Position numbers and translations under genes: made by a program | DNA from: Sarea resinae | Taxonomy: Eukaryota | Direction of reading: 5' to 3' | Assembly: GCA_026026165.1 (NCBI GenBank) | Contig: JAPEUD010000011.1 | Location: forward strand, 124,001 to 188,000 | Length of the DNA stretch: 64,000 nt | Notes under the pieces: model-generated | Database searches by the model: none | The model's input: only the letters and a program-made list of their open reading frames with translations | What the model was told of the DNA's origin: nothing | In this document: positions 20,905 to 62,700 of the stretch, piece by piece | How positions within the stretch are numbered: the first letter of the stretch is position 1 | Layout: each line of letters opens with the position of its first letter

Positions 20905-22104
20905 ATGTTTGCACGCAATGCTTTCCGGTCGGTGCAATCCGTCAAGACTGTACGTGTGTCCTTTACTCGGTGCAAGAGCTATGAGCTTTGTCGCTTAGAG
21001 ACCGGCTGTTGAACTTGACCCCCGCTGACACCCCGCAGAGCGTCCGCCATTATGCCACCGAGCCAGCGAAGACAAGCTCGAATACGGCGCTCTACCTTGG
21101 ACTTGCTGCCGCAGCAGGAGCTGGAGGATACTACTACCTTAACTCCGGGAAAGGTGCAGCCGCACCTGCTTCAAAGGATGAGGCGAAGAGCATCCCGAAG
21201 CAGGCCGGAGAAAAGAGTCTCGCTTTCAAGGGAGGAGATCAGGGCTTCATTGACCTGAAGCTTGCCAGTGTTGAGGAGATCAACCATAATACGAAGCGTT
21301 TCAAGTTTGCATTGCCGAACGAGGATGACATCTCGGGCATGGTAGTCTGCTGTAAGCGCTACACTTCTAAGCCAAAGATCTTACTGACGTTTGTAGCTGC
21401 ACTTTTGACGAAGTTCCAGGGTCCTGGAATGGAGAAGCCCGTCATCCGTCCGTACACCCCCACTAGTGATCCGGGTAAGTCAACAATACTTCTGTCTGCA
21501 CCCTCTGGGGCCTCTAATCTAATTCCCATTCTCAGATACCAAGGGATACCTAGAGCTTATCGTCAAGAGGTACCCCAATGGGCCTATGTCGGAACACTTT
21601 CATGATTTGAAGCCCGACCAGCGCCTGGAATTCAAAGGACCAATTCCCAAGTATGCTTGGACCCCGAACAAGCACGATCACATTGCCCTAATTGCGGGTG
21701 GGACCGGTATCACGCCGATGTGGCAGCTCGCACAAGCTATCTTCAAGAACCCCGAGGACAAGACCAAAGTCACTCTAGTCTTCGGAAATATCTCCGAGCA
21801 GGATATCCTGCTGAAGAAGGAATTCGAGGCGCTAGAGAACACCTACCCCAACCGCTTTAAAGCATTCTACGTCCTCGATAATCCTCCAAAGGAATGGGCC
21901 GGTGGCAAGGGCTTCATCACCAAGGATCTCTTGAAGACTGTCCTTCCAGAGCCAAAGTCGGAGAACATCAAGCTCTTTGTTTGTGGACCACCACCGCTGT
22001 ACAAGGCTCTCAGTGGCGTGAAGAAGAGCCCTACCGACCAAGGAGATTTTACTGGGGCACTGAAGGAGCTTGGATACAATGCCGACCAGGTTTACAAGTT
22101 CTAA
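20905..22104 (+). CDS. MCR1: Mitochondrial NADH-cytochrome b5 reductase
   Basis: Presequence [17 protein letters not shown] anchor [17 protein letters not shown], then [46 protein letters not shown], ending VYKF*. Introns at ~20950, 21352 and 21475. Confidence 0.93.
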
Positions 22105-22386
22105 GATGTTTGTACCGCCTGACTTTGATAGACCGCCATAACGCTGCCAGTGATGGTGTATCTCCATCGACTTTGTATGTACCTAGGGATAAGAGTGTTT
22201 TCAAGAAGCATGATGTCTTTTAAATGCGTGGAAAAGGTTAAACTTTGTTTTGCATGGAGATATAAAATAAATCGCTCATTTTTTTCAACAACAATTCTTC
22301 CGGTAATATGTCTATGTGCAGTAGAAGCCACCTTTTGACCAAAATGTTGTATCGTAGCTCGATCATGTCTAGTGAGTATCTACTCC

Positions 22387-23418
22387 CGTTGAACATCTGG
22401 GAGAAGGGACCAGTTTGCTTGGACGCCTATGGATTCGGGGAGTAAATGTGGGAAGAAATCTTCTCTACTTGCGGTGACAGCAGTTGGTCCTTTTTTTTAG
22501 AGAGGGGGGCGAAGAGGTCTTTAGAGGAGCATTCTTGGGATTGAATAGCTTGAGTTAGAGGCTATTGTTGTGTTGTATTAATTCTACGGTAGAGATTGCC
22601 CTGTGATTTAAAAAGACTTACAGTATTGATTGAATCGTTGGAACGTCTATTGTAGATATAGGGATTGTAGACGTTCAGCGAAGAAAAAAAAGGGGGGCTT
22701 TGGCCCTTACTAATTGCTGGTCTTACAGATATAGAGGAATATTACCATACAGTCTGTAAGGATGGATCGTCGATGGGGCTGCGAGTCCTGGGCGGATCCA
22801 ATTTGGGGGATGACCTCTGGGCGGGTGGGGGGAGAGGGGGGCTGCCAGTTCTGGGCACCGACCGACGGGTTGGTCGTGAAGTGGTTGCGCAAACTATTGC
22901 AGAGCTGAGTGAGACGTTCGACGATAAAAGGACGAAAACCCGCCCGCCATTGACTGCGTCTCTCGAAAAGTAAGGTGACTGCGTACCCAGGCGATCCAGA
23001 GAATTTTTGGGCATTTATCGTTGAACGTCTAAGAAGTTTTTGGAGGATAAATCGCTAGGATCGTCTATCCTCCATCCATCTACTACTGCGTATCGACGAG
23101 GGGCAATACCTGAGACGTTCAACGATAAATTGCTCCAAAACTCGCCAAGACAGAAGAGACGTTCGATGATAAATGCCCAGACTACTAAGGTACGATGGTA
23201 CCAAGTACCAAGCAGCACGTACTTAGTCCCTCAGTCCCTCGCCTCGGTCAGGTCAGCCAGCCAATGAAGGAGTTTCCGACCATTAATCGTCGAACGTCTC
23301 TGGCATTTGGAAGGTTCTAGGACGACGACGGGGCCGAAGGGCGTTGGTTTTTTTTTTTTCGTCGAACGCCTCAGCAGGGTTTTTGGCGATTTTTCGTCAA
23401 ACGTCTCAGGTTTTGCCA
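22387..23418. repeat. Non-coding array of ~10 copies of an 18-bp motif (GAGACGTTCGACGATAAA) in both orientations, with nested inverted repeats
   Basis: Copies at 22387(-, degenerate), 22633(-), 22669(+), 22911(+), 23014(-), 23112(+), 23156(+), 23283(-), 23355(-) and 23390(-). Confidence 0.85.
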
Positions 23419-23916
23419 CGTCCAGCCAGCCAAGGCCCGCCCGCCTGCCTGCCGCGGCGCCCCCGTGAATTGCGGTTGTCCTTCTGAGAAACACACGCGC
23501 GGGTCGTACGTAATCTTGAAGCCACCCACCACCCCTTTGGAAATGCGCTCTTCCATTTCGGCACTGATCGACTAACTACCTCGATCGATATCAAAGGAGC
23601 TCGCTAGCTACCTTATCTTATCCAAGTTTGCGTTCAATATGTCAATGCCTAGGTAGGTACTATGTAAACCTCTTGAAACCAGAGATTCTAGACCTAATAA
23701 TGTCTCCGCTGTCATCGGACATGATATAGGTACTTACAGAAACCACAAGCACATAGTAGGCTAAATAGCTTAATATAGACCTTTGATCGCTCATGAGTTT
23801 TATTTTCCGCACTGATCTATTTATTGGTGTATATATTGAATTCTCGAAATGTGCTTCCTTCTTTTCCAATCCTCTTTTCCAATCCTCTTTTCCACTCCTC
23901 GGCCCTACCGCACCAA

Positions 23917-25957
23917 CTACGCAACGGCATACTTGCTCCACCCCCTAATCTTCGGTCCCCAAATCATAAACGCAACAGGAACTGGTACCATCAACGCACT
24001 GATGCAGCCCAACACAGTGAGAGCCCAATGTACGCCCAAATTCTTATACATCGGTATGGCCACCTCGATCATGCCGCCGGCAGCAGCGTAGCGGATCAGC
24101 GTCATGGAGGCGAGGGCCGAGGCGGCCCAGCTTTCGTAGGAGTCGATGATGTATTGATAGCAGCAGATGAAGACGCAGAGAATGCCATGGCCGAAAAGCA
24201 CGGTAGCTGCGAGTGGGGACCAGCAGGAGATAGAGGGGTAGGCCGTCCAGCCCATCCAGAAGAGGGATATGGGAATTGCGGGGGCCTTGTTTCGTGTCAG
24301 ATGAAGCGCACCCAAAATTGTCAAGGAGGACAGGACAATTGATATGGATGGTAGGGAAAAATGAGCGAGAGAAACTTACGCCGAAGATGCCATACCAGAG
24401 ACGGAATTCTGGAGGCAATCTCGTACCGCCCTGCTCTTGGACTTTCTCTAGATCGTGCTTCGCCCACCGATAAATGAGCGGGACAAGCGCTGAAGCTCCA
24501 CAGAGCCCAATCGCGATACCCAAGAATGACAAGCCGGTGAGGCCTTGAGAAAAGCCATAGGTGTCGGTAAAGATGAAGGTGAAGCCGTTTAGGAAAGTGA
24601 AAAGGATTATGTAGATGACGGTGAGGTAAAGGGCGAAGAGCATGATGATAGGCTCTGAGAAGGTAAGTAAGAATGGTCGATACAGGGCTGTTCCGAGACG
24701 ATGTAGAAAGCTGCTTTCGCGGATTTCCATTGGGGCGCGGTAGCGGTCATCGCCTGAAATCGCGCGGAGGTGCTGCGCCTTCCATTTGAGAAGAGTTGGT
24801 GCGTATGTTTCGGGTTGGAACAGCAAGACGAGGCCGAGGACAAGGCCCGACATGATGAGAGTGATCCATTCGGTCCAGCGCCAGCTAATCAAGTGGCTTT
24901 GCCCAATAAAGCCACCAACGACAGGACCTATTACCGGTCCCATGAATCTGGGGATTGTCAGCCCGGGCCTTGCGTTCAAACGGAGAGAGTGGGACTCACG
25001 CCGCGTTGGCGAAGACTGGGAAAGCGAACACTCTCTCTAGCGGACGCCAGAGGTCCGATATCGAACCTCCTGCGCACACAAGGGGGGTTGCAGCGAAACA
25101 TCCCGCAATAAAGCGGAACGCAAGTTGCGCGCCGATATTTGGTGATAAACCAGCCGCCATGATGAATATCATATACAACGTCAGAGTGGCAATATACACT
25201 GGATTTCGTCCAATGGTCTCGGATATGGGGCCCGCGAATAGTGATCCACATCCAAATCCGATCAGAAAGAGTCCTGCAACATTGTCAGCATGGCTGCTGC
25301 GCGGCGACATACCCAGAAGACCGACCAGTTGCCAAGGATTCGGTCACTTCACTAACACCGAATTCCTTCGCTGCTTGTGGCAGCGCCGCAGAGTCAACGG
25401 ACGAGGCAAATCCGACGACGAAACCGATACTGGCTATAAGCATGCTGAACGATAGGTCAGTACTGGAAATTGAATGTTCAAAGTGTACTATCTCACGTAG
25501 CCCTTATTCGAACGAACGTGCTCCAATTATGAGGGTTCAAGCTGTCCTCGTCGCCGTGGTAGCCCACGACGAAAACTTTCCCCGATTGGCCCTCGTGCGT
25601 CGTCCGGTCCCGAACATCAATACCCGTGAGAGTGTTTCCCAGCGCCGTCCCGAAGGAATTTCGTGTGGTAGCCCTGCGCATCAGCGAATGCGGAAGATCG
25701 TCGACCGCAGCGGGTCTGTCGTCGTCCAGTGCTTCATCGGCGCTTTCGCCCTTCTCGAGGTCGCGGGTATCTTCATATTTTTCTGGATCTCGCGATGGCG
25801 ACGACCGTTCAGACGTGGATGTCGGATCGGACAGAGCTTCTAGTCGAGGGTCGATTGGTTTGTTGCTATGCGCCGTCGGAAGGTCTCGGCCTTTGGCATC
25901 CTCAAATTGTCGAGTTGCGTGCTTCTTGAAGCGACGATACTGTAAGAAGCTCTGCAT
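23917..25957 (-). CDS. MFS transporter, DHA1 (drug:H+ antiporter / polyamine transporter-like) family
   Basis: D..NPHNWS, GPISETIGRNPVY, GAQLAFRFIAG, GGSISDLW, GPVIGPVVGGFI, SWRWTEWI, QPETYAP, PPEFRL, YIIDSYE.WAASALA. Several GT-AG introns. Confidence 0.93.
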
Positions 25958-30647: not shown

Positions 30648-33600
30648 ATGCATCTTGTACCACGAGAGGTGCGCTTCAGGGCTTCCCCGATACCCCACAC
30701 GTTGGACTATCTGATAAGGTCAATAGCTGGACAAGCTGGTCATCTCGCAGCTGGGTCTGCTCGCCCAACGACGCCTTGCTCGAGGCGTCAAGTTGAATCA
30801 TGCCGAAGCAACTGCAAGTCTTCCTATCCATCAAGTCGATCTCAATCTAATGCGCTTAGGCTTTGATCGCAAATAACCTTCAAGAAGTGTGTCAACTCCA
30901 CCGCGACTCAACTCAGCATCCTCTCCCACAATGCTGATGCTCTTGTATAGTTGGTCCGCGATGGAAACCATTCCGTGGCAGATCTCATGTCCATTGGCAA
31001 GACGATGCTCGGCCGACGACATGTTCAACCCTCGGTGGTTTCCACCCTGACCGAACTACAGATTGAGGGGACCTTTCCATCGGGCACATATCTAGTCACT
31101 GTTCACCATCCAATAAGCAGTGATGATGGCGACCTCGCAAAAGCCTTGTATGGAAGCTTTTTGCCAATTCCATCTCAAGAAACGTTTCCTCTTCCCGCTG
31201 CGTCAGAATATGAGCCAAAAAGTGCTCCTGGTGCGATTATACCTGTCAAGGAGGCGCGGGTTGTCCTAAACGGAGGACGCAAGAGAATAAGATTGAGGGT
31301 CACAAGCAAAGGAGACCGACCGATACAGGTGTGTTTATAAGATCGTTATTGCCTGACTGAGTTAACATGACCATCGAAGGTCGGCTCTCACTACCATTTT
31401 ATTGAAACGAACCCACAATTGGAATTTGATCGCCTCCAAGCGTATGGCTACCGTCTTGATATCGCCGCCGGTACCTCTGTTAGGTTTGAACCGGGCGACA
31501 GCAAGACCGTCACGCTTGTCGAAATCGGTGGACACAGGGTCATTCGTGGGGGCAATAGCATTGCTTCTGGACCGATCGACATCTCTCGCGCGGATGAGAT
31601 TGTGCAGCGTCTGGAGGAAGGAGGCTTTGCCCACGTATCAAGTCCAAGACTGGATAGCGAATATATCGATATTGCTTCCATGGATAGGTCGGCATACTGC
31701 GGAATGTTCGGCCCAACAACCGGGGACTTGGTGCGACTTGGATTAACAGGTTTGTGGGTGAAGGTGGAAAAGGATTTTACATATTACGGCGACGAGTGCA
31801 CATTTGGTGGAGGAAAATCTTTGAGAGAGGGAATGGGGCAAGCTAGTGGACGAGCAGATGCTGAGGTCTTGGATTCGGTTATCACGAATGCGCTCATCAT
31901 TGATTGGAGTGGTATCTTCAAGGCTGATATCGGAATCAAGGACGGGGTGATCGTTGGCATTGGGAAGGCTGGCAATCCCGATGTCATGGAAGGAGTCAAT
32001 CCGGCCATGGTAGTTGGATCATGCACCGATGTCATCGCAGGAGAAGGAAAGATAATCACAGCTGGAGGCTTCGATACCCACATCCATACCATCTGCCCCC
32101 AACAGGCTTACGAATCTATCTCCGCCGGTATTACAACCATGCTTGGGGGAGGAACTGGTCCAAGGTATGCCTTCTGCAACACAATTCCAACAGCTTGCTA
32201 AAATTCAAATAGTACTGGCACCAACGCAACAACATGCACTCCAGGAAACTTCTTCATCCGGAACATGCTACAAGCCTGTGACGAATTGCCTATCAATTTT
32301 GGTATTACAGGAAAGGGTAACGATAGCGACAAGCGGGCCTTACAGGAACAATGTGCTGCCGGTGCTGCCGGTCTCAAATTGCACGAGGATTGGGGAACGA
32401 CGCCAGCAGCTATCGACACATGTCTGAGGTAGGACCTAATTGAAGTTGGGGTATCAAGAGACTAACGGCTTCAGCGTGTGCGACGAATACGATGTCCAAT
32501 GCCTCATCCATACAGACACTCTCAATGAGTCTGGATTCGTCGAGCAAACCATCGCAGCCTTTAAAAACCGCGCCATCCACACCTATCACACTGAAGGTGC
32601 CGGAGGCGGCCATGCCCCTGACATCATTTCAGTAGTAGAGCATGACAACGTGCTCCCCAGTTCTACCAATCCAACTCGACCCTACACTCGTAATACTCTC
32701 GACGAGCACCTCGACATGCTCATGGTATGCCATCACCTCTCCAAGAACATCCCGGAAGACGTCGCTTTCGCCGAAAGCCGCATCCGCGCCGAAACCATCG
32801 CAGCGGAGGATGTCCTCCACGATCTCGGTGCTATCAGCATGATGTCCTCCGATTCGCAAGCCATGGGTCGCTGCGGCGAAGTCATCCTACGCACATGGCA
32901 CACGGCGCACAAGAACAAGGTACAGCGCGGTCAATTGAAAGAGGACGAAGGTACCGGTGCGGATAATTTCAGGGTCAAAAGGTATATCAGTAAGTATACG
33001 ATTAACCCGGCCATTGTTCAGGGGATGAGTCACATTATCGGAAGTGTGGAAGTGGGGAAATTGGCAGATCTGGTGGTGTGGACGCCGGCGAATTTTGGGA
33101 CAAAGCCCGAGATGGTTGTAAAGAGTGGGATGATTTCGTACGCTCAGATGGTAAGTCTTCTCACTTGCTGAAGATGTTAGAGAAGCCTGCTAATGTGCTG
33201 ACTCAGGGTGATCCAAACGCATCGTAAGTGCCCGTCCATCGTAATGCTGGAACCTCTCCAGGTCCTGTCGGGTGCCAACTAAGATTCTCGTAGTATCCCA
33301 ACCGTCGAACCTATAATCATGCGTCCCATGTTCGCAGTAAGTGTTTTCAACCCTCCCTTTCCAATCCTCCGGACCTCCCTCCGCCCCCTTTCCCAAGCAG
33401 CCACTAACACACTACTACGCCAAAGTCGCTCGTACCCAGCACCAGCATAACATTTGTATCTGGCTCCTCGATCGCCAGCGGCCGAGTCGCGGCCTACAAC
33501 CTTCGACACCGCGTCGAAGCCGTCAAGAACTGCCGCAGCGTCAAGAAACAGCATCTGAAATACAACGACAAGACGCCTAGGATGAAAGTCGACGCTGAGA

Positions 33601-33974: not shown

Positions 33975-34229
33975 GTCCATTGCTATCTCCTCGAAGGACT
34001 TTGATGCAAGGTCGGAGACGAGAAGAGATGGGAGGGTAATCGGAGAACATGAGGGGATTCGAAACCAGGTTGGGCTATGCTCCGCAAGTCAAAAGCGAAA
34101 TTGAAGGCGCAAGTGAAAATTAAGGTCAAGGAGAAAGCCAATGGCTCACTCTCTGGAGTCGGGAGAGCGGGTTATCGGAGGAGCAGCGGCGGCCTTGAGA
34201 GAGTACGCACAACGGAGGCGGTCGCGGTG

Positions 34230-34230
<1 letters not shown>

Positions 34231-34290
<60 letters not shown>
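34231..34290. repeat. (GAT)20 microsatellite
   Basis: 20 perfect GAT units. Confidence 0.95.
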
Positions 34291-34291
<1 letters not shown>

Positions 34292-34925
34292 GTGGGATCA
34301 AGAGATGATCCCAATGGTCCTCGTTTCCCCACCCCCCCTCAAATCTCTTTCCTCATTTCTTGTCTCCCTTCTCTCTTCTCTCTCTTCTTTCTCTTATTTC
34401 TCTCCGTTCCCCCTTTATCCGTCATTTCCCCGAGATCGTATCTTTCTCCTACGATAAGAACGGTATGAATGGTATGCGATACGATCGTCTTCGACAAGCT
34501 GTATACAGACCTAGCTCGCTTCATCCAACCTGATCCAACTATTCTATACTATCAATCTTCTCGACTCCGTAGCTCTACACTCACTTTTGTCTATGACAGG
34601 CCGAGGAGGAAAGTGCAGCCAGAAAGCTATAAGAAACGAAAGGAGAAAAGGGAGAAGATAGGAGAAGTCGGGAGAAGTTGGGAGAAGTTTGTGAATAGCT
34701 AGGTAAATAGATCGATTACATATGTCACAGTCACAGTCACAGAAATCGAAATCGAAATCCGTGGAAGAATCAAAGGTCAAAACGAAACGCCAGATATATG
34801 CCGGTTTGGATCGTGTCCCGCATCCCACATGCCGTGTTCCACATCTCTGTCTCTCTCACCCTCTTTTCTTCCTCTCCTGCAATATACAAAACCACCCAGC
34901 CCCCCTCCCCCCCTCTTTCCCCCCA

Positions 34926-41139: not shown

Positions 41140-42420
41140 TCTGGATGGATGGATGGGTAGATAGATGGATGGACGGATGTGGCGGGTGGCGTACGGTAGA
41201 GAGAGAGAGAGGGGGGGGTGGGGGGAAAGGAAACGAAAAGACAGGGGAGAAGAAAAAAGAGAGAGGCCAAGAAAAAGGGGACCCATACGGATGGATGCAG
41301 AGGCGTCCAGGCGTTTTTTTTCTTTTCCATTCTTTTTTTTTTTTCCTTCATCAAGCGACTATCCGATTTCGCTACTAGAGTTTGTTCACCCACCTGGTTA
41401 GCTGGCTGGCATAAGGAGTTTTAGGGGAGGGGGGTTTTTCTCTTTTGTTGCTGTTGCTGTTGCTATTGCTGTTGCTGCTACTGTAGTGATCACATCTTGC
41501 ATACCACCACCGTGTATACTCTACAACGAGATAGATAGCAAAGTAAAACAAAACAAATTGAACCAAACCAAAGCCAAACCATGCCAAAGCCATAGCTACT
41601 ATACCTGCTATACCGACTATAAATAGCTAAAATAGCTGTTATAACTAGCTGAGCTGAGCTAGGCTAGGCTAGGCTATGCCAGGCTATTAATATTCGGTAT
41701 CAAAAGATGATGATGATGACGATGATGATAATGATAATGATGATGATAGTGGCAAACCCACATGTCACATTTTCTATGCAGTTTTTATTCTCTATTCTTT
41801 GAGTATCAGTACTAGTAGATAGTTGGTTTCTTAGTTTGTTTGCTTGTTTAGAGGCCCTAAATACCTGTCTGGCTGGCTGGCTAGCTGGCTGGCTGACTCC
41901 CTGGCTAGGTATCTAGCTATCTAGCTATCTAGCTATCTAGCTATTGGTAAGTTATATCTGCCATCCTCTCTCTCTCTCTCCCCCCCCTTCTACCTCTTCT
42001 GTCTCCTCTCTTCTCTCCCCTTCTCCCCTGTCTCTCTTCTCTCCCCTTCTCCCCTGTCTCTCTTCTCTCCCCTTCTCCCCTCTCTTCTTCTCTTCCCACG
42101 CTTATCTCCCGGCCCCCGACCCCTCCTGATAAATCCATCCCCTAAAACCCCTTTCCCACATAGTACTACCACCGCGGTGCATACAGATAAGCGAACGGAG
42201 AAGAGAAAAAGAAAAAAAAAAAGAAAAGAAAAGAAAAGGAGAGATGAAAGATGAAAAAGGGACCGAGACCAGGCCGGAAGCCGGACCAAGATGCCTGCTG
42301 ATGATGTATTTTGAAGTGGTTGGATGTGGTTGGATGTGGTGAGTGTAGGGTGATGTAGTGTGTGGGTGGCTGTGGATAGGTTGGGTAGTGTAGGTGGTGA
42401 AGAAGTGAATGCAAACCAAA
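41140..42420. repeat. Microsatellite/low-complexity-rich spacer between convergent UTP11 and TAF9
   Basis: (GGAT)n, (GA)n, (TTGCTG)n, (GAT)n, (GGCT)n, (TATCTAGC)n, and a polypyrimidine tandem repeat (~23-bp unit ctctcttctctccccttctcccctgt-like) at ~41965-42095. Confidence 0.8.
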
Positions 42421-59749: not shown

Positions 59750-62700
59750 CTAATTTCCTCGAGGAGAACTATTTTCGATCAATAACAGTAACACAAGACA
59801 ACATATGCGTAAGACCTACGTGGGGGAGTAAGTGGGAGAGGTACTACGGAAAATTCAGCGAAATGTTTCTTGAAGGCTATCGGTGAACTTACGGAGACCA
59901 CTTCGGCGAGGAGGCAGAATACGGAGCCGCCCCAGGTGAGGTTGGAGAACCACCAAAGTTAGGTGACGATGGTGAGTACCCACCAACAGGGCTTGTAGGA
60001 CTGTACATTGGAGACGTCGGGCTATAACTTGCCGGAGACGTTGGAGAAGTAGGGGAATGCCTAGAAACAATCAGTCTCTGACCTTTAAATCCACTAGAAT
60101 AGACTCACTGTTTGGCGGCCGCCTTGCCGTCAAATTGTGGGCTCGTTGGACTGTACATCGGCGATGTAGGACTATACGTCGGAGAAGTCGGGCTGTACTT
60201 TGGCGACGTAGGACTATAGCTCGGCGACGTTGGAGAGTAATTGGGAGATGTCGGCGAATAACTAGGGGAAGTAGGCGAGTATGATGGTGAAGTAGGAGAA
60301 ATGCCAGCTTGACCATAGGCAGGCGAAGTAGGAGAGTATGTAGGTGAAGTTGGAGTGAAGGCAGGGCTGGCTGGTGAAAAGCGCGGCGACGATGCAAAGT
60401 TCGGACTTGTCATGCTCATGCCCGGAGACGTTGGAGAATAGCCAGGTGAGGTAGGCGAGAATCCCGGCGAAGTTGGGCTGGTGTTGAAAGGGCTACTAGG
60501 TGAGTAACCACCTGGACTTCGCACTGAGTAGGGACTCATGCCACCGAAACCTTGAGGCCCAGAGTAATCGGTGAAGCCACCCGGGGTCTCAGCGCCGGAG
60601 TTGACAACAGGCGAGAAGGAAGCACCATAATCCGGCGAACCGAGATAGCCACCTTCTTGCATAGGTGATCCACTCTCGTACGGGGTTGCTGCACCATCTA
60701 CCATACCACCCTTGACACCAATGCCCGGCATGATGCCAAGTCTGGCATTGTCCGAGATAACGGTATCAAGCATCTTCTGATCAAGGAACACTTCCAGCTC
60801 GCCAGTTCCCATCGGAGCAAGTTGCCCAAGCATGACATTTTCAGAGATGCCGCGGCAATCGTCCAACTCTCCGCAAGCGGCGGCGTCCAACAAAATCTCC
60901 ACAGTCTCTTCGAAGGAACACCTCATCAATGCGCCAGTATCTGCACGGTTGATACCATGACGTGTGATAGCCATGAGATGCCCCCTAGCAGTCATGACAT
61001 CCACAAGTAGAGCTAGATGACGATGGTTGACATAAGAACCATCAAAAGCCAGCACCTGGGTCAATTCTCTCATAAGAGCAGACCTAGTCGCCTCAATTCC
61101 AAAGACTTGGAAGACTTCGATGAAAGAGTTCGAGTAAGTCCGAGTGGAGTCAACGCCCGGTACAGAAAGGACCGCCCCGAGAGCAGTTCCACTCGTGTCG
61201 AGAATCCACTCAATACACTTCGGGTCGGCCGCTTTCTTGATCAGTGCACCGTCTTCGTCCAGTCTCATCTTTGTCTTGCTGTTCATGAAAGCTCGTTCAA
61301 CGCCATTGACGCCACGAAGGGTCAGAGTATCCAGCATATGATTTTCCAGTCTCTTTAGCATCAGATCCTCTTCCAATTCATCTTCATCGTCACCCTTGCT
61401 CTGGTCTTGCATCATGCGAATACGAATAACTTGCTCGTCGGCATTCTGGTCACTGAAAATGACAGACAGATCCTTGCCATAGGCTTCCGTGATCTTTGCT
61501 GCCACTCCGGCCACTGATAAATCTTTATCTAGGAGCTTGCGCCGATCGAGAATAATACGAAGGACCCATTTCGATACTTGTGGTGCGTTTACTTCATCTT
61601 CTGGGAGAGCAGAGTATGCCTCCACAATGTCTTGATCGGTCTCGATCACAGTAGACATGGCGTCAGGATCGTACCAGATCTCCGTAGTTTCCGTTACGGA
61701 ACGCAGCGTAGTGTGCTCTACGGCACTTCTCAATCGCTTGACGCTTTCCTTATCCTCAGCATGCTCTTCATCCTGATAAACCGTCATCGACGGCGTTTTG
61801 ATATTGGTGGCAACGTTGAGAATTTCCTTCAATCGAGGAACACCAAGCGTGACGTTCTTGGACGAGACACCAGCAAAATGGAAGGTATTCAGAGTCATCT
61901 GAGTTGCCGGCTCACCAATTGACTGTGCTGCAAGGACTCCCACCATTTCGCCGGGATTCACTGCCGCTCGGCCGAAGCGGTTCTCGATTTCTCCCAATAC
62001 GTATTGGAAAGCAATCTTGTTAAGGCTGTTCTCTACGACAAGTCTCTTGAAAGCGAGTCGAGATCGTAGATGAGTTTGGAAGAGGCAAGTCGCGTTCTCC
62101 TGAGCTTCTAGAGAGAGGGGATCGTCTCCTCGTACCACAACAAGTCGGCTGATCATGTCTCGGACTTTTGGAATGACGTCGTTAGGGTGTAGGTCACTCT
62201 GCGATCCCTCTCTGATCCTGAAGATTGATTTCGCAGTATCTATAATCCGAATGACGTTGATGGGAAGCGGTATTGTTTCCGAGTCCTCTTTGAGCTTGTG
62301 CTGTCGAAGGAAATTTCGGTCTGCTTTGAGCTGCTCCCACTCCGCGTCGAGATGACGTTGAACATCGATGTCACCTTGGATTTCACGCGCTTGTTCGAGT
62401 AGCTCCGGGGTGATGCCTCCTTTCGGATCCATGACGTCGACACGGAACTTCTTCTCGAACTCTTTATCCGAACAAAAGACGACGTCCAGACGTTGCGATT
62501 CAATGTGAACACCGTCCAATCCATCTTCGCCGTAAACGAACTGCACGATGTCTCCCAGAGAGTTTCTGACAGTACCATCATATTTGGCCATGACATCCTC
62601 GAGAGCCTTGACCAGTCGTCGCTGAATATAACCAGTCTCAGCTGTTTTAACGGCAGTATCGATCAAACCTTCACGACCAGCCATGGCGTGGAAAAAGAAC

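Follow-up and report, generated by a model that had tools for sequence, protein, structure and literature searches.

A clustered ~30-nt repeat between two convergent genes of Sarea resinae: possible remnants of foldback/MITE-type DNA transposons

The 64,000-nt stretch of Sarea resinae DNA that we analyzed (contig JAPEUD010000011.1, positions 124,001 to 188,000; hereafter the window) contains, in a 1.8-kb gap between two convergent housekeeping genes, an array of a short motif with an 18-nt core that is present in both orientations. The copies of the array pair with each other as inverted repeats, the DNA that holds them can be folded into a hairpin, and elsewhere in the same genome there are short copies that break off sharply at their GAGACG end. 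We tentatively interpret the array as a small nest of remnants of non-autonomous DNA transposons of the foldback/MITE type (MITE, miniature inverted-repeat transposable element), whose ends carry a transposase-binding unit; this is the interpretation that we favor, without giving it quite an even chance. An earlier, sequence-only reading of this DNA had predicted a multi-site protein-binding platform and had offered three options for it, namely the repeats of a non-autonomous element, an iteron-like replication origin or chromosomal cis-element, and a TFIIIC-type boundary cluster. Taken together, the inverted pairs, the nested hairpin and the dispersed short copies with their sharp outer edge fit the transposon option best of the three.

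The existence of the array is well established by several scans of the window. The 18-mer GAGACGTTCGACGATAAA has seven matches at 0-2 mismatches, all of them within 22911-23407; the chance expectation is 0.02 and none of 100 shuffles attained seven. When a position weight matrix (PWM) built from these seven strong copies is run over the window, the copies themselves score 27.7-31.4 bits, against a null maximum of 16.4 bits in 20 shuffles; the next best site, at 22668 on the + strand, reaches 17.2 bits and all remaining sites fall inside the null range. The same seven copies are recovered by a profile search with E values of 1e-10 to 5e-7. If a degenerate 14-nt core with at most one edit is used instead, ten matches are found in the 64 kb, nine of them within 22634-23406 and one at 61112, compared with a null mean of 0.38 per 64 kb and a null maximum of 2 (60 shuffles). 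Two of these copies, 22634 (-) and 22669 (+), are degenerate and, taken singly, weak in the profile search (E about 5). In total, nine copies are supported (seven near-perfect and two degenerate) within 773 bp, at an irregular spacing of 35-243 nt. The sequence-only reading had listed ten copies and had given the correct orientation at all ten positions; its seven strong copies are robust and two more stand within one edit of the 14-nt core, while its candidate at 22387 has three mismatches in that core, was picked up by none of the mismatch, PWM, profile and edit scans and has to be dropped. Its remark that no similar cluster occurs elsewhere in the window is confirmed by the mismatch, PWM, profile and repeat scans, and the array is the sole complex repeat of a window that otherwise consists of repeat-free housekeeping-gene DNA. 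The ratio of observed to expected CpG is 1.31 over the array (22898-23421), 0.95 over the window and 0.98 over the whole intergenic gap.

Analysis of the copies indicates that the conserved unit is longer than the 18-mer. It comprises ~30 nt, in which the 18-nt core is followed, 4-6 nt past its AAA end, by a weaker RAAAC box (CCAAAAAC / CGRAAAC), and several copies show a similar box 4-6 nt ahead of the GAGACG end. Boxes on both sides resemble what a decayed tandem unit of 35-44 nt would look like, a size at which two couples of copies are indeed spaced (23355/23390, 35 nt apart; 23112/23156, 44 nt apart). The core can itself be read directly as two GACGWT half-sites 7 nt apart. The seven strong copies have a mean pairwise identity of 0.868 over the core, which drops to 0.307 and 0.384 over the adjoining 18 nt on the upstream and downstream sides, respectively. 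This contrast fits the predicted protein-binding platform. Four of the nine differences between the cores are CpG-to-TpG/CpA transitions. Transposases typically bind bipartite recognition units of about this length (~30 nt), which is long for a fungal transcription factor.

The copies are arranged in inverted pairs that bound short non-coding segments and that are overall 21-32 nt long at 84-91% identity. In three of these pairs, which consist of one + and one - copy each, the flanks are specific to the pair: pair A (22911+ / 23283-; 29 nt, 86%), pair B (23014- / 23156+; 23 nt, 91%) and pair C (23112+ / 23390-; 32 nt, 84%, including 10 nt outside the core). The 23156/23283 pair nests properly within the 23112/23390 pair, and the DNA from 23095 to 23425 can be folded into a nested hairpin of -61.5 kcal/mol, compared with -42.0 +/- 3.8 kcal/mol for shuffled sequences (z -5.19; none of 100 shuffles as stable). 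The arms of this hairpin are made of repeated sub-units, with 23112+ and 23156+ (44 nt apart) in the left arm and 23283-, 23355- and 23390- (72 and 35 nt apart) in the right arm. In the left segment alone (22911-23031) the hairpin is marginal, with a z of -1.92 and 5 of 200 shuffles. This left segment, which runs from an A end to a B end, and the segment 23156-23300, which runs from a B end to an A end, have like ends in opposite orientation. The spacers between the copies had been described as unrelated, which is correct for the interiors of these two A/B segments but does not hold next to the copies, where similarity continues past the AAA end of the 18-mer for another ~12-15 nt and where the three pairs share their own flanks.

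Copies of the unit are also found outside the window. We compared four public sequencing runs with the window at 80% likeness. One of these runs may be the source of the window DNA and its contigs are treated here as belonging to the same genome; it covers the locus evenly at a depth of 362 (362.1 for the window), and the depth is raised only in the four bins in which the array lies (1001, 520, 669, and 545). Among the listed pieces and loose ends of that run, at least eight other contigs match motif copies over 18-34 nt. A 5,072-nt contig with a depth of 362 matches 22910-22943 and a 4,684-nt contig with a depth of 345.5 matches 23270-23300; since both have the depth of the window, they are taken as other loci of the same genome, and in both the similarity extends into the A-type flank. 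The dispersed matches begin 1-4 nt ahead of the GAGACG end with a sharp edge, outside of which the sequence is unrelated. Three contigs depart from the window exactly at the end of the 18-mer and yet resemble each other afterwards (agreement of 0.71 over 30 nt), with an AAAAC box, and one contig has a - copy ~18 nt before a + copy, like the 22634/22668 pair. Such similarity past the core at dispersed loci points to common descent and not to independent binding sites. Two further runs, which belong to the same study and come from other organisms, gave nothing beyond short matches in conserved coding sequence. A metagenome scan with the pattern GAGACGTTCRAYGAWAAA gave at least 118 loci with one match each, and a second, weak PWM match (13.3 bits) was present in only one of the 118 listed; as these matches are single and unclustered, they were judged to be chance and not relatives. 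This pattern describes one site, and a two-site pattern would be more specific. A literature search for 12-13-nt substrings of the motif on both strands gave one occurrence, in a paper on plant-bacteria gene transfer, which was judged unrelated.

In the mechanism that we propose, the ~30-nt unit would be the binding site of the transposase of this family, located at and just inside the ends of its elements. Element 1 (22911-23031) would then have one A-type and one B-type end, and element C (23102-23417), with its 32-nt C-type ends, would enclose a second copy of the A/B element (23155-23301) that is nested in reversed orientation. The copy at 23355, which is in a 35-nt register with 23390, may be an additional subterminal copy, and 22634/22668 may represent a tiny head-to-head pair. 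We infer that the unit binds a transposase and that these pieces arrived by transposition; the remnants would now be immobile debris that may incidentally influence local transcription.

Several observations weigh against such an origin. The two A/B segments can be aligned with each other at their ends but not in their interiors. The search for target-site duplications that had been suggested together with the sequence-only reading came out negative, as nothing longer than 3 bp was found at eight candidate end pairs (offsets of 0-15 nt, lengths of 2-10). The A pair (22911...23300) is not nested with the C pair (23112...23407) but overlaps it, so that the nested arrangement hinges on pairing A ends with B ends. 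No other contig of the run that may be the source matches the array over more than ~34 nt; no long co-linear copy with defined ends was seen among its contigs, and the array as a whole is unmatched among them. In the 64-kb window neither a parent element nor a transposase gene is seen, and in the six local open reading frames (ORFs) that were tested no Pfam domain was found above the cut-off (the best E value, 0.056, is below it). The conservation of the core (0.87, against 0.31 and 0.38 in the adjacent 18 nt) speaks either for selection on the core or for recent activity. A sevenfold contrast in divergence between core and flank does not agree with the neutral decay of old debris, whereas recent activity should have left target-site duplications, of which none was found. 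The earlier proposal of subterminal or terminal repeats of a non-autonomous element is favored by the inverted pairs, the nested hairpin and the sharp-edged dispersed copies, but not by target-site duplications or co-linear copies. An 11-nt direct repeat, CAGCCAGCCAA (23254 and 23423), was also considered as a target-site duplication and rejected: by our own estimate chance alone would give ~0.7 pairs of this kind in 2.4 kb, and the segment that it encloses has no inverted ends.

Information on transcription comes from a wood-decay metatranscriptome that contains a close relative, with 96-99% identity in the array flanks. In this relative, a contig of the spliced reductase mRNA is 96.3% alike and ends at 22267, and the 3' region of the MFS (major facilitator superfamily) gene, 23778-24275, is 98.6% alike, while a 184-nt contig over the array interior (23190-23322) is only ~82% alike, with several indels. 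This difference indicates that the spacers are free to change. The 184-nt contig is unspliced and has a depth of 3.3, and it may therefore be DNA carry-over. No RNA contig of the relative lies over 22310-23155, where missing cover is not evidence of silence. To the right of the array, the relative has an unannotated spliced transcript on the + strand, whose contig has its start at 23477 or earlier, ~70 nt beyond the last copy and right after a CT-rich tract. Its intron is a canonical fungal one, 91 nt in length, that starts with GTACGT, has GACTAAC 20 nt before its end and ends with AG; the splice joint is seen in a single contig of depth 3, with a 29-nt side that is just under the caution line of 30. 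This transcript has no convincing ORF and would overlap the 3' end of the MFS gene in antisense. The sequence-only reading had concluded from the position of the array between two 3' ends that it is not an ordinary promoter, and in view of this contig such a conclusion is unsafe.

The conservation pattern and the + strand transcript lead to another explanation, by which the copies form a homotypic site cluster for a sequence-specific DNA-binding protein of the host and the array would be a putative activating or insulating region upstream of an antisense and probably non-coding transcript, with the dispersed copies belonging to the same regulon. We consider this unlikely on balance, if a serious candidate. 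It would account for a conservation that is largely restricted to the core, for an over-represented motif that occurs in both orientations at free distances, and for unrelated spacers that change freely between the window and the relative. The recurrence of the core on other contigs with unrelated outer flanks, which in three contigs goes as far as a match that ends exactly with the 18-mer, would fit as well, and so would the absence of target-site duplications at the eight end pairs and the start of the spliced + contig (joint 23505>23597) 70 nt past the last copy. Yet for the site of a fungal factor, a bipartite unit that spans ~30 nt and keeps 87% identity in its core has an unusual length and sharpness, and the likeness of the dispersed copies beyond the core, both in the three contigs that agree with each other and in the two with an A-type flank, argues for copying. 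No other intergenic region of the 64 kb holds a copy, the splice joint comes from the one contig of low depth, the RNA contig over 23190-23322 could be carry-over and the + transcript lacks a convincing ORF. To our knowledge, none of the familiar fungal sites (Abf1, AflR-type TCGN5CGA, GATA/SreA, the heat-shock element and the CENP-B box) gives a convincing match in an informal comparison. A further idea, which we hold to be rather unlikely, is that the ~30-nt unit, instead of being debris, serves as a dispersed cis-element that is recognized by a host protein, which might be a domesticated transposase. Clusters of the unit would mark special chromosomal sites in Sareomycetes, and the present one would drive or insulate the antisense non-coding transcript. 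As a hybrid of the transposon and host-protein readings, sites of a domesticated transposase would account for the observations behind both. Selection by such a protein would explain how the core has kept its 87% identity while its surroundings, including the orthologous spacer of the relative, change freely. It is improbable, in our view, that the array is a chromosomal structural element, such as a putative roadblock or terminator, a replication-fork barrier or a boundary between convergent genes. Its location between convergent genes, the conservation of the core only and the dispersal of a unit of transposase-site-like length would agree with this, as would the end of the relative's MCR1 mRNA contig at 22267 ahead of a stretch without RNA contigs, bearing in mind that a gap in cover is not evidence of absence. 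The factor involved might again be a domesticated transposase, in which case the conserved core and the transposon-like anatomy would no longer be at odds. However, the + strand contig over 23190-23322 implies that the array is not an absolute block.

The hairpin could also be the functional feature, if the inverted pairs were transcribed into a long imperfect hairpin from which small RNAs are made. The stability of the nested hairpin (calculated as DNA) and the low-depth contig from an RNA library over 23190-23322 are in line with such a locus; still, the arms are short, with long unpaired stretches between them, the differences between partners are mismatches and not compensatory changes, and the contig, unspliced and of low depth, may be DNA, which makes a small-RNA locus very improbable. 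The TFIIIC-type (extra-TFIIIC, ETC, or B-box) boundary cluster was suggested by the GTTCGA/GTTCAA in the core, which resembles the middle of the Pol III B-box, and we can practically discard it. None of the nine copies matches the B-box, GGTTCGANTCC, either in its relaxed form GTTCRANNC or as GGTTCRANNCC; the 11 GTTCRANNC matches and the one GGTTCRANNCC match of the window all lie outside 22387-23418 and are not above chance, no tRNA genes are present in the window, and no Rfam family matches over 21000-25000 at E values up to 1. An iteron-type origin would be expected to have direct repeats in a regular register next to an AT-rich region; here the orientation is mixed, the spacing irregular and the GC content 0.46-0.48 with no AT-rich island, and this reading fits the sequence poorly. 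Finally, a coding repeat was considered, as some frames of the motif translate to ETFDDK; the copies occupy different frames and strands, and this reading was therefore rejected.

For the transposon interpretation that we prefer, the most similar known systems are foldback (FB-type) elements, in which the arms are built of repeats, and Emigrant-like MITEs. Like these, the array consists of short non-coding segments with inverted ends, in which a motif of the size of a protein site is repeated at and inside the ends in both orientations; it can form hairpins and its copies are dispersed in the genome. Unlike these, it has no target-site duplication, its interiors are unrelated, and neither a homogeneous co-linear family nor a parent transposase was found. 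The Arabidopsis Emigrant MITE is reported to have terminal inverted repeats together with subterminal repeated motifs that are bound cooperatively by pogo-like Lemi1 proteins (PMC1636448). For a filamentous ascomycete, Epichloe festucae, 13 degenerate EFT MITE families are described (PMC3227409). The likeness is in small, old, non-coding inverted-repeat elements in gene-flanking DNA whose parents are mostly lost; the EFT elements are recognizable there as whole-element families, whereas here only the ~30-nt end unit is common to the loci.

In CACTA (En/Spm) elements, a 12-bp TnpA-binding motif is repeated in both orientations within the terminal 200-300 bp. The array has in common with them the many motif copies in both orientations, irregularly spaced over a few hundred bp, with head-to-head and tail-to-tail pairs. 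It differs in that its borders (22890-22911 and 23407-23430) show no CACTA...TAGTG and no 3-bp duplication beyond chance, that its motif is of 18-30 nt and not 12, and that the whole array takes up ~0.5-0.8 kb with nothing between two 'ends'. Among host regulatory regions, the upstream activating sequence (UAS) of yeast GAL1-GAL10, with its four 17-bp Gal4 sites, is comparable in having several sites of 17-18 bp in either orientation, with free spacers, beside a transcription start. However, the array motif does not have the CGG-type half-sites of zinc-cluster proteins and is ~30 nt long with a descent-like similarity of flanks elsewhere, and the only record of its downstream transcript is one low-depth contig from the relative. 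With ETC/B-box sites the array shares the GTTCGA/GTTCAA core and the intergenic position, but not the B-box consensus, which no copy fits.

The window is fungal nuclear DNA with ordinary housekeeping genes (TrkH, PAF acetylhydrolase, an HMG-box protein, urease, Utp11, TAF9, lipin, and Rpb1 in addition to the two neighbors of the array) and is not a secondary-metabolite cluster. The position that had been reported for the array, flanked by the 3' ends of MCR1 and of the MFS gene, is correct, as can be seen from the coordinates of both genes (Table 1). Over 98% of the last reductase exon, the translation shows 100% identity to 'MAG: NADH-cytochrome b5 reductase [Sarea resinae]', and the next-best matches, from Xylariales and other Pezizomycotina, are at 83% or less. 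In the reductase gene the mRNA contig of the relative confirms the introns 21352-21396 (45 nt) and 21474-21534 (61 nt), both GT..AG, and shows a further skip at 20948-21038. The array region has stop-free frames of 66-114 aa, and with the Pfam result given above we can accept the earlier statement that it holds no credible ORF. A 13-nt tandem repeat, TCTTTTCCAATCC, is present in 3.2 copies (23860-23900) shortly after the MFS stop codon, presumably in the 3' untranslated region of that gene, and a fourth copy of it, 26 nt in length and 77% similar, is located at 33344-33369. To the left of the array, the stretch 22775-22856 is G-rich, with a 19-nt direct repeat (GGGGCTGCGAGTCCTGGGC / GGGGCTGCCAGTTCTGGGC) 63 nt apart and several runs of G6-G7. 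Low-complexity repeats that are unrelated to the array are a long (GAT)n microsatellite (34222-34295) and a 26-nt CT-rich tandem repeat in three copies (42006-42085).

Table 1. Features of the array and of its surroundings in the window. Inverted pairs are numbered with the prefix I.
Feature	Position	Strand	Remarks
Degenerate copy	22634..22650	-	1-nt insertion; 1 edit from the 14-nt core; profile E 5.1; head-to-head with 22668, spacer ~16 nt
Degenerate copy TAGACGTTCAGCGAAGAA	22668..22685	+	17.2 bits; 1 substitution in the 14-nt core (core match from 22669)
Perfect consensus copy, subtype A	22911..22928	+	Extended unit to ~22943; most other-contig matches fall here
Copy, subtype B	23014..23031	-	ATAAATGCCCA common to copy 23156; pair I6, 23 nt, 91%
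Copy, subtype C	23112..23129	+	Left arm, outer hairpin pair; pair I1, 32 nt, 84%
Copy, subtype B	23156..23173	+	Left arm, inner hairpin pair; 44 nt past 23112; pairs I6 and I8
Copy, subtype A	23283..23300	-	Right arm, inner pair; pair I3, 29 nt, 86%; three other contigs match here
Copy without inverted partner of its own	23355..23372	-	35 nt from copy 23390
Copy, subtype C	23390..23407	-	Right arm, outer pair; pair I1
Candidate inverted-repeat element 1 (A end...B end)	22911..23031	.	121 bp; pair I4, 27 nt, 81%; hairpin z -1.92; no target-site duplication
Candidate element C	23102..23417	.	316 bp, 32-nt inverted ends (I1); encloses element 2; nested hairpin; no target-site duplication
Candidate element 2 (B end...A end)	23155..23301	.	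Inside element C; opposite orientation to element 1; pairs I8, I3, I6
Unannotated spliced transcript (relative)	23477..23754	+	Intron 23506-23596; joint 23505>23597, GT..AG; 97.5% alike
Last exon, NADH-cytochrome b5 reductase (MCR1-type)	21523..22104	+	Stop codon at 22104; mRNA contig of the relative reaches 22267
MFS transporter, 3' part	23917..25036	-	C-terminal ORF ends near 23917; MFS_1 E 1.9e-12; contig of the relative over 23778-24275

A literature search at the title and abstract level found no report of a Sarea genome analysis. If the transposon interpretation is true, the array is ordinary selfish-DNA debris in a little-studied class of fungi, and it would be useful as a seed for annotating an undescribed repeat family. 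The kind of element is already known, but its core is so sharply conserved that a more interesting function is conceivable. If the core is kept by a host protein, it would rank with the longest and sharpest of the dispersed cis-elements that are known from filamentous fungi, and it could exemplify a DNA-binding system derived from a transposase that is in chromosomal use. Under either reading, the array is a defined and easily testable candidate target for protein binding.

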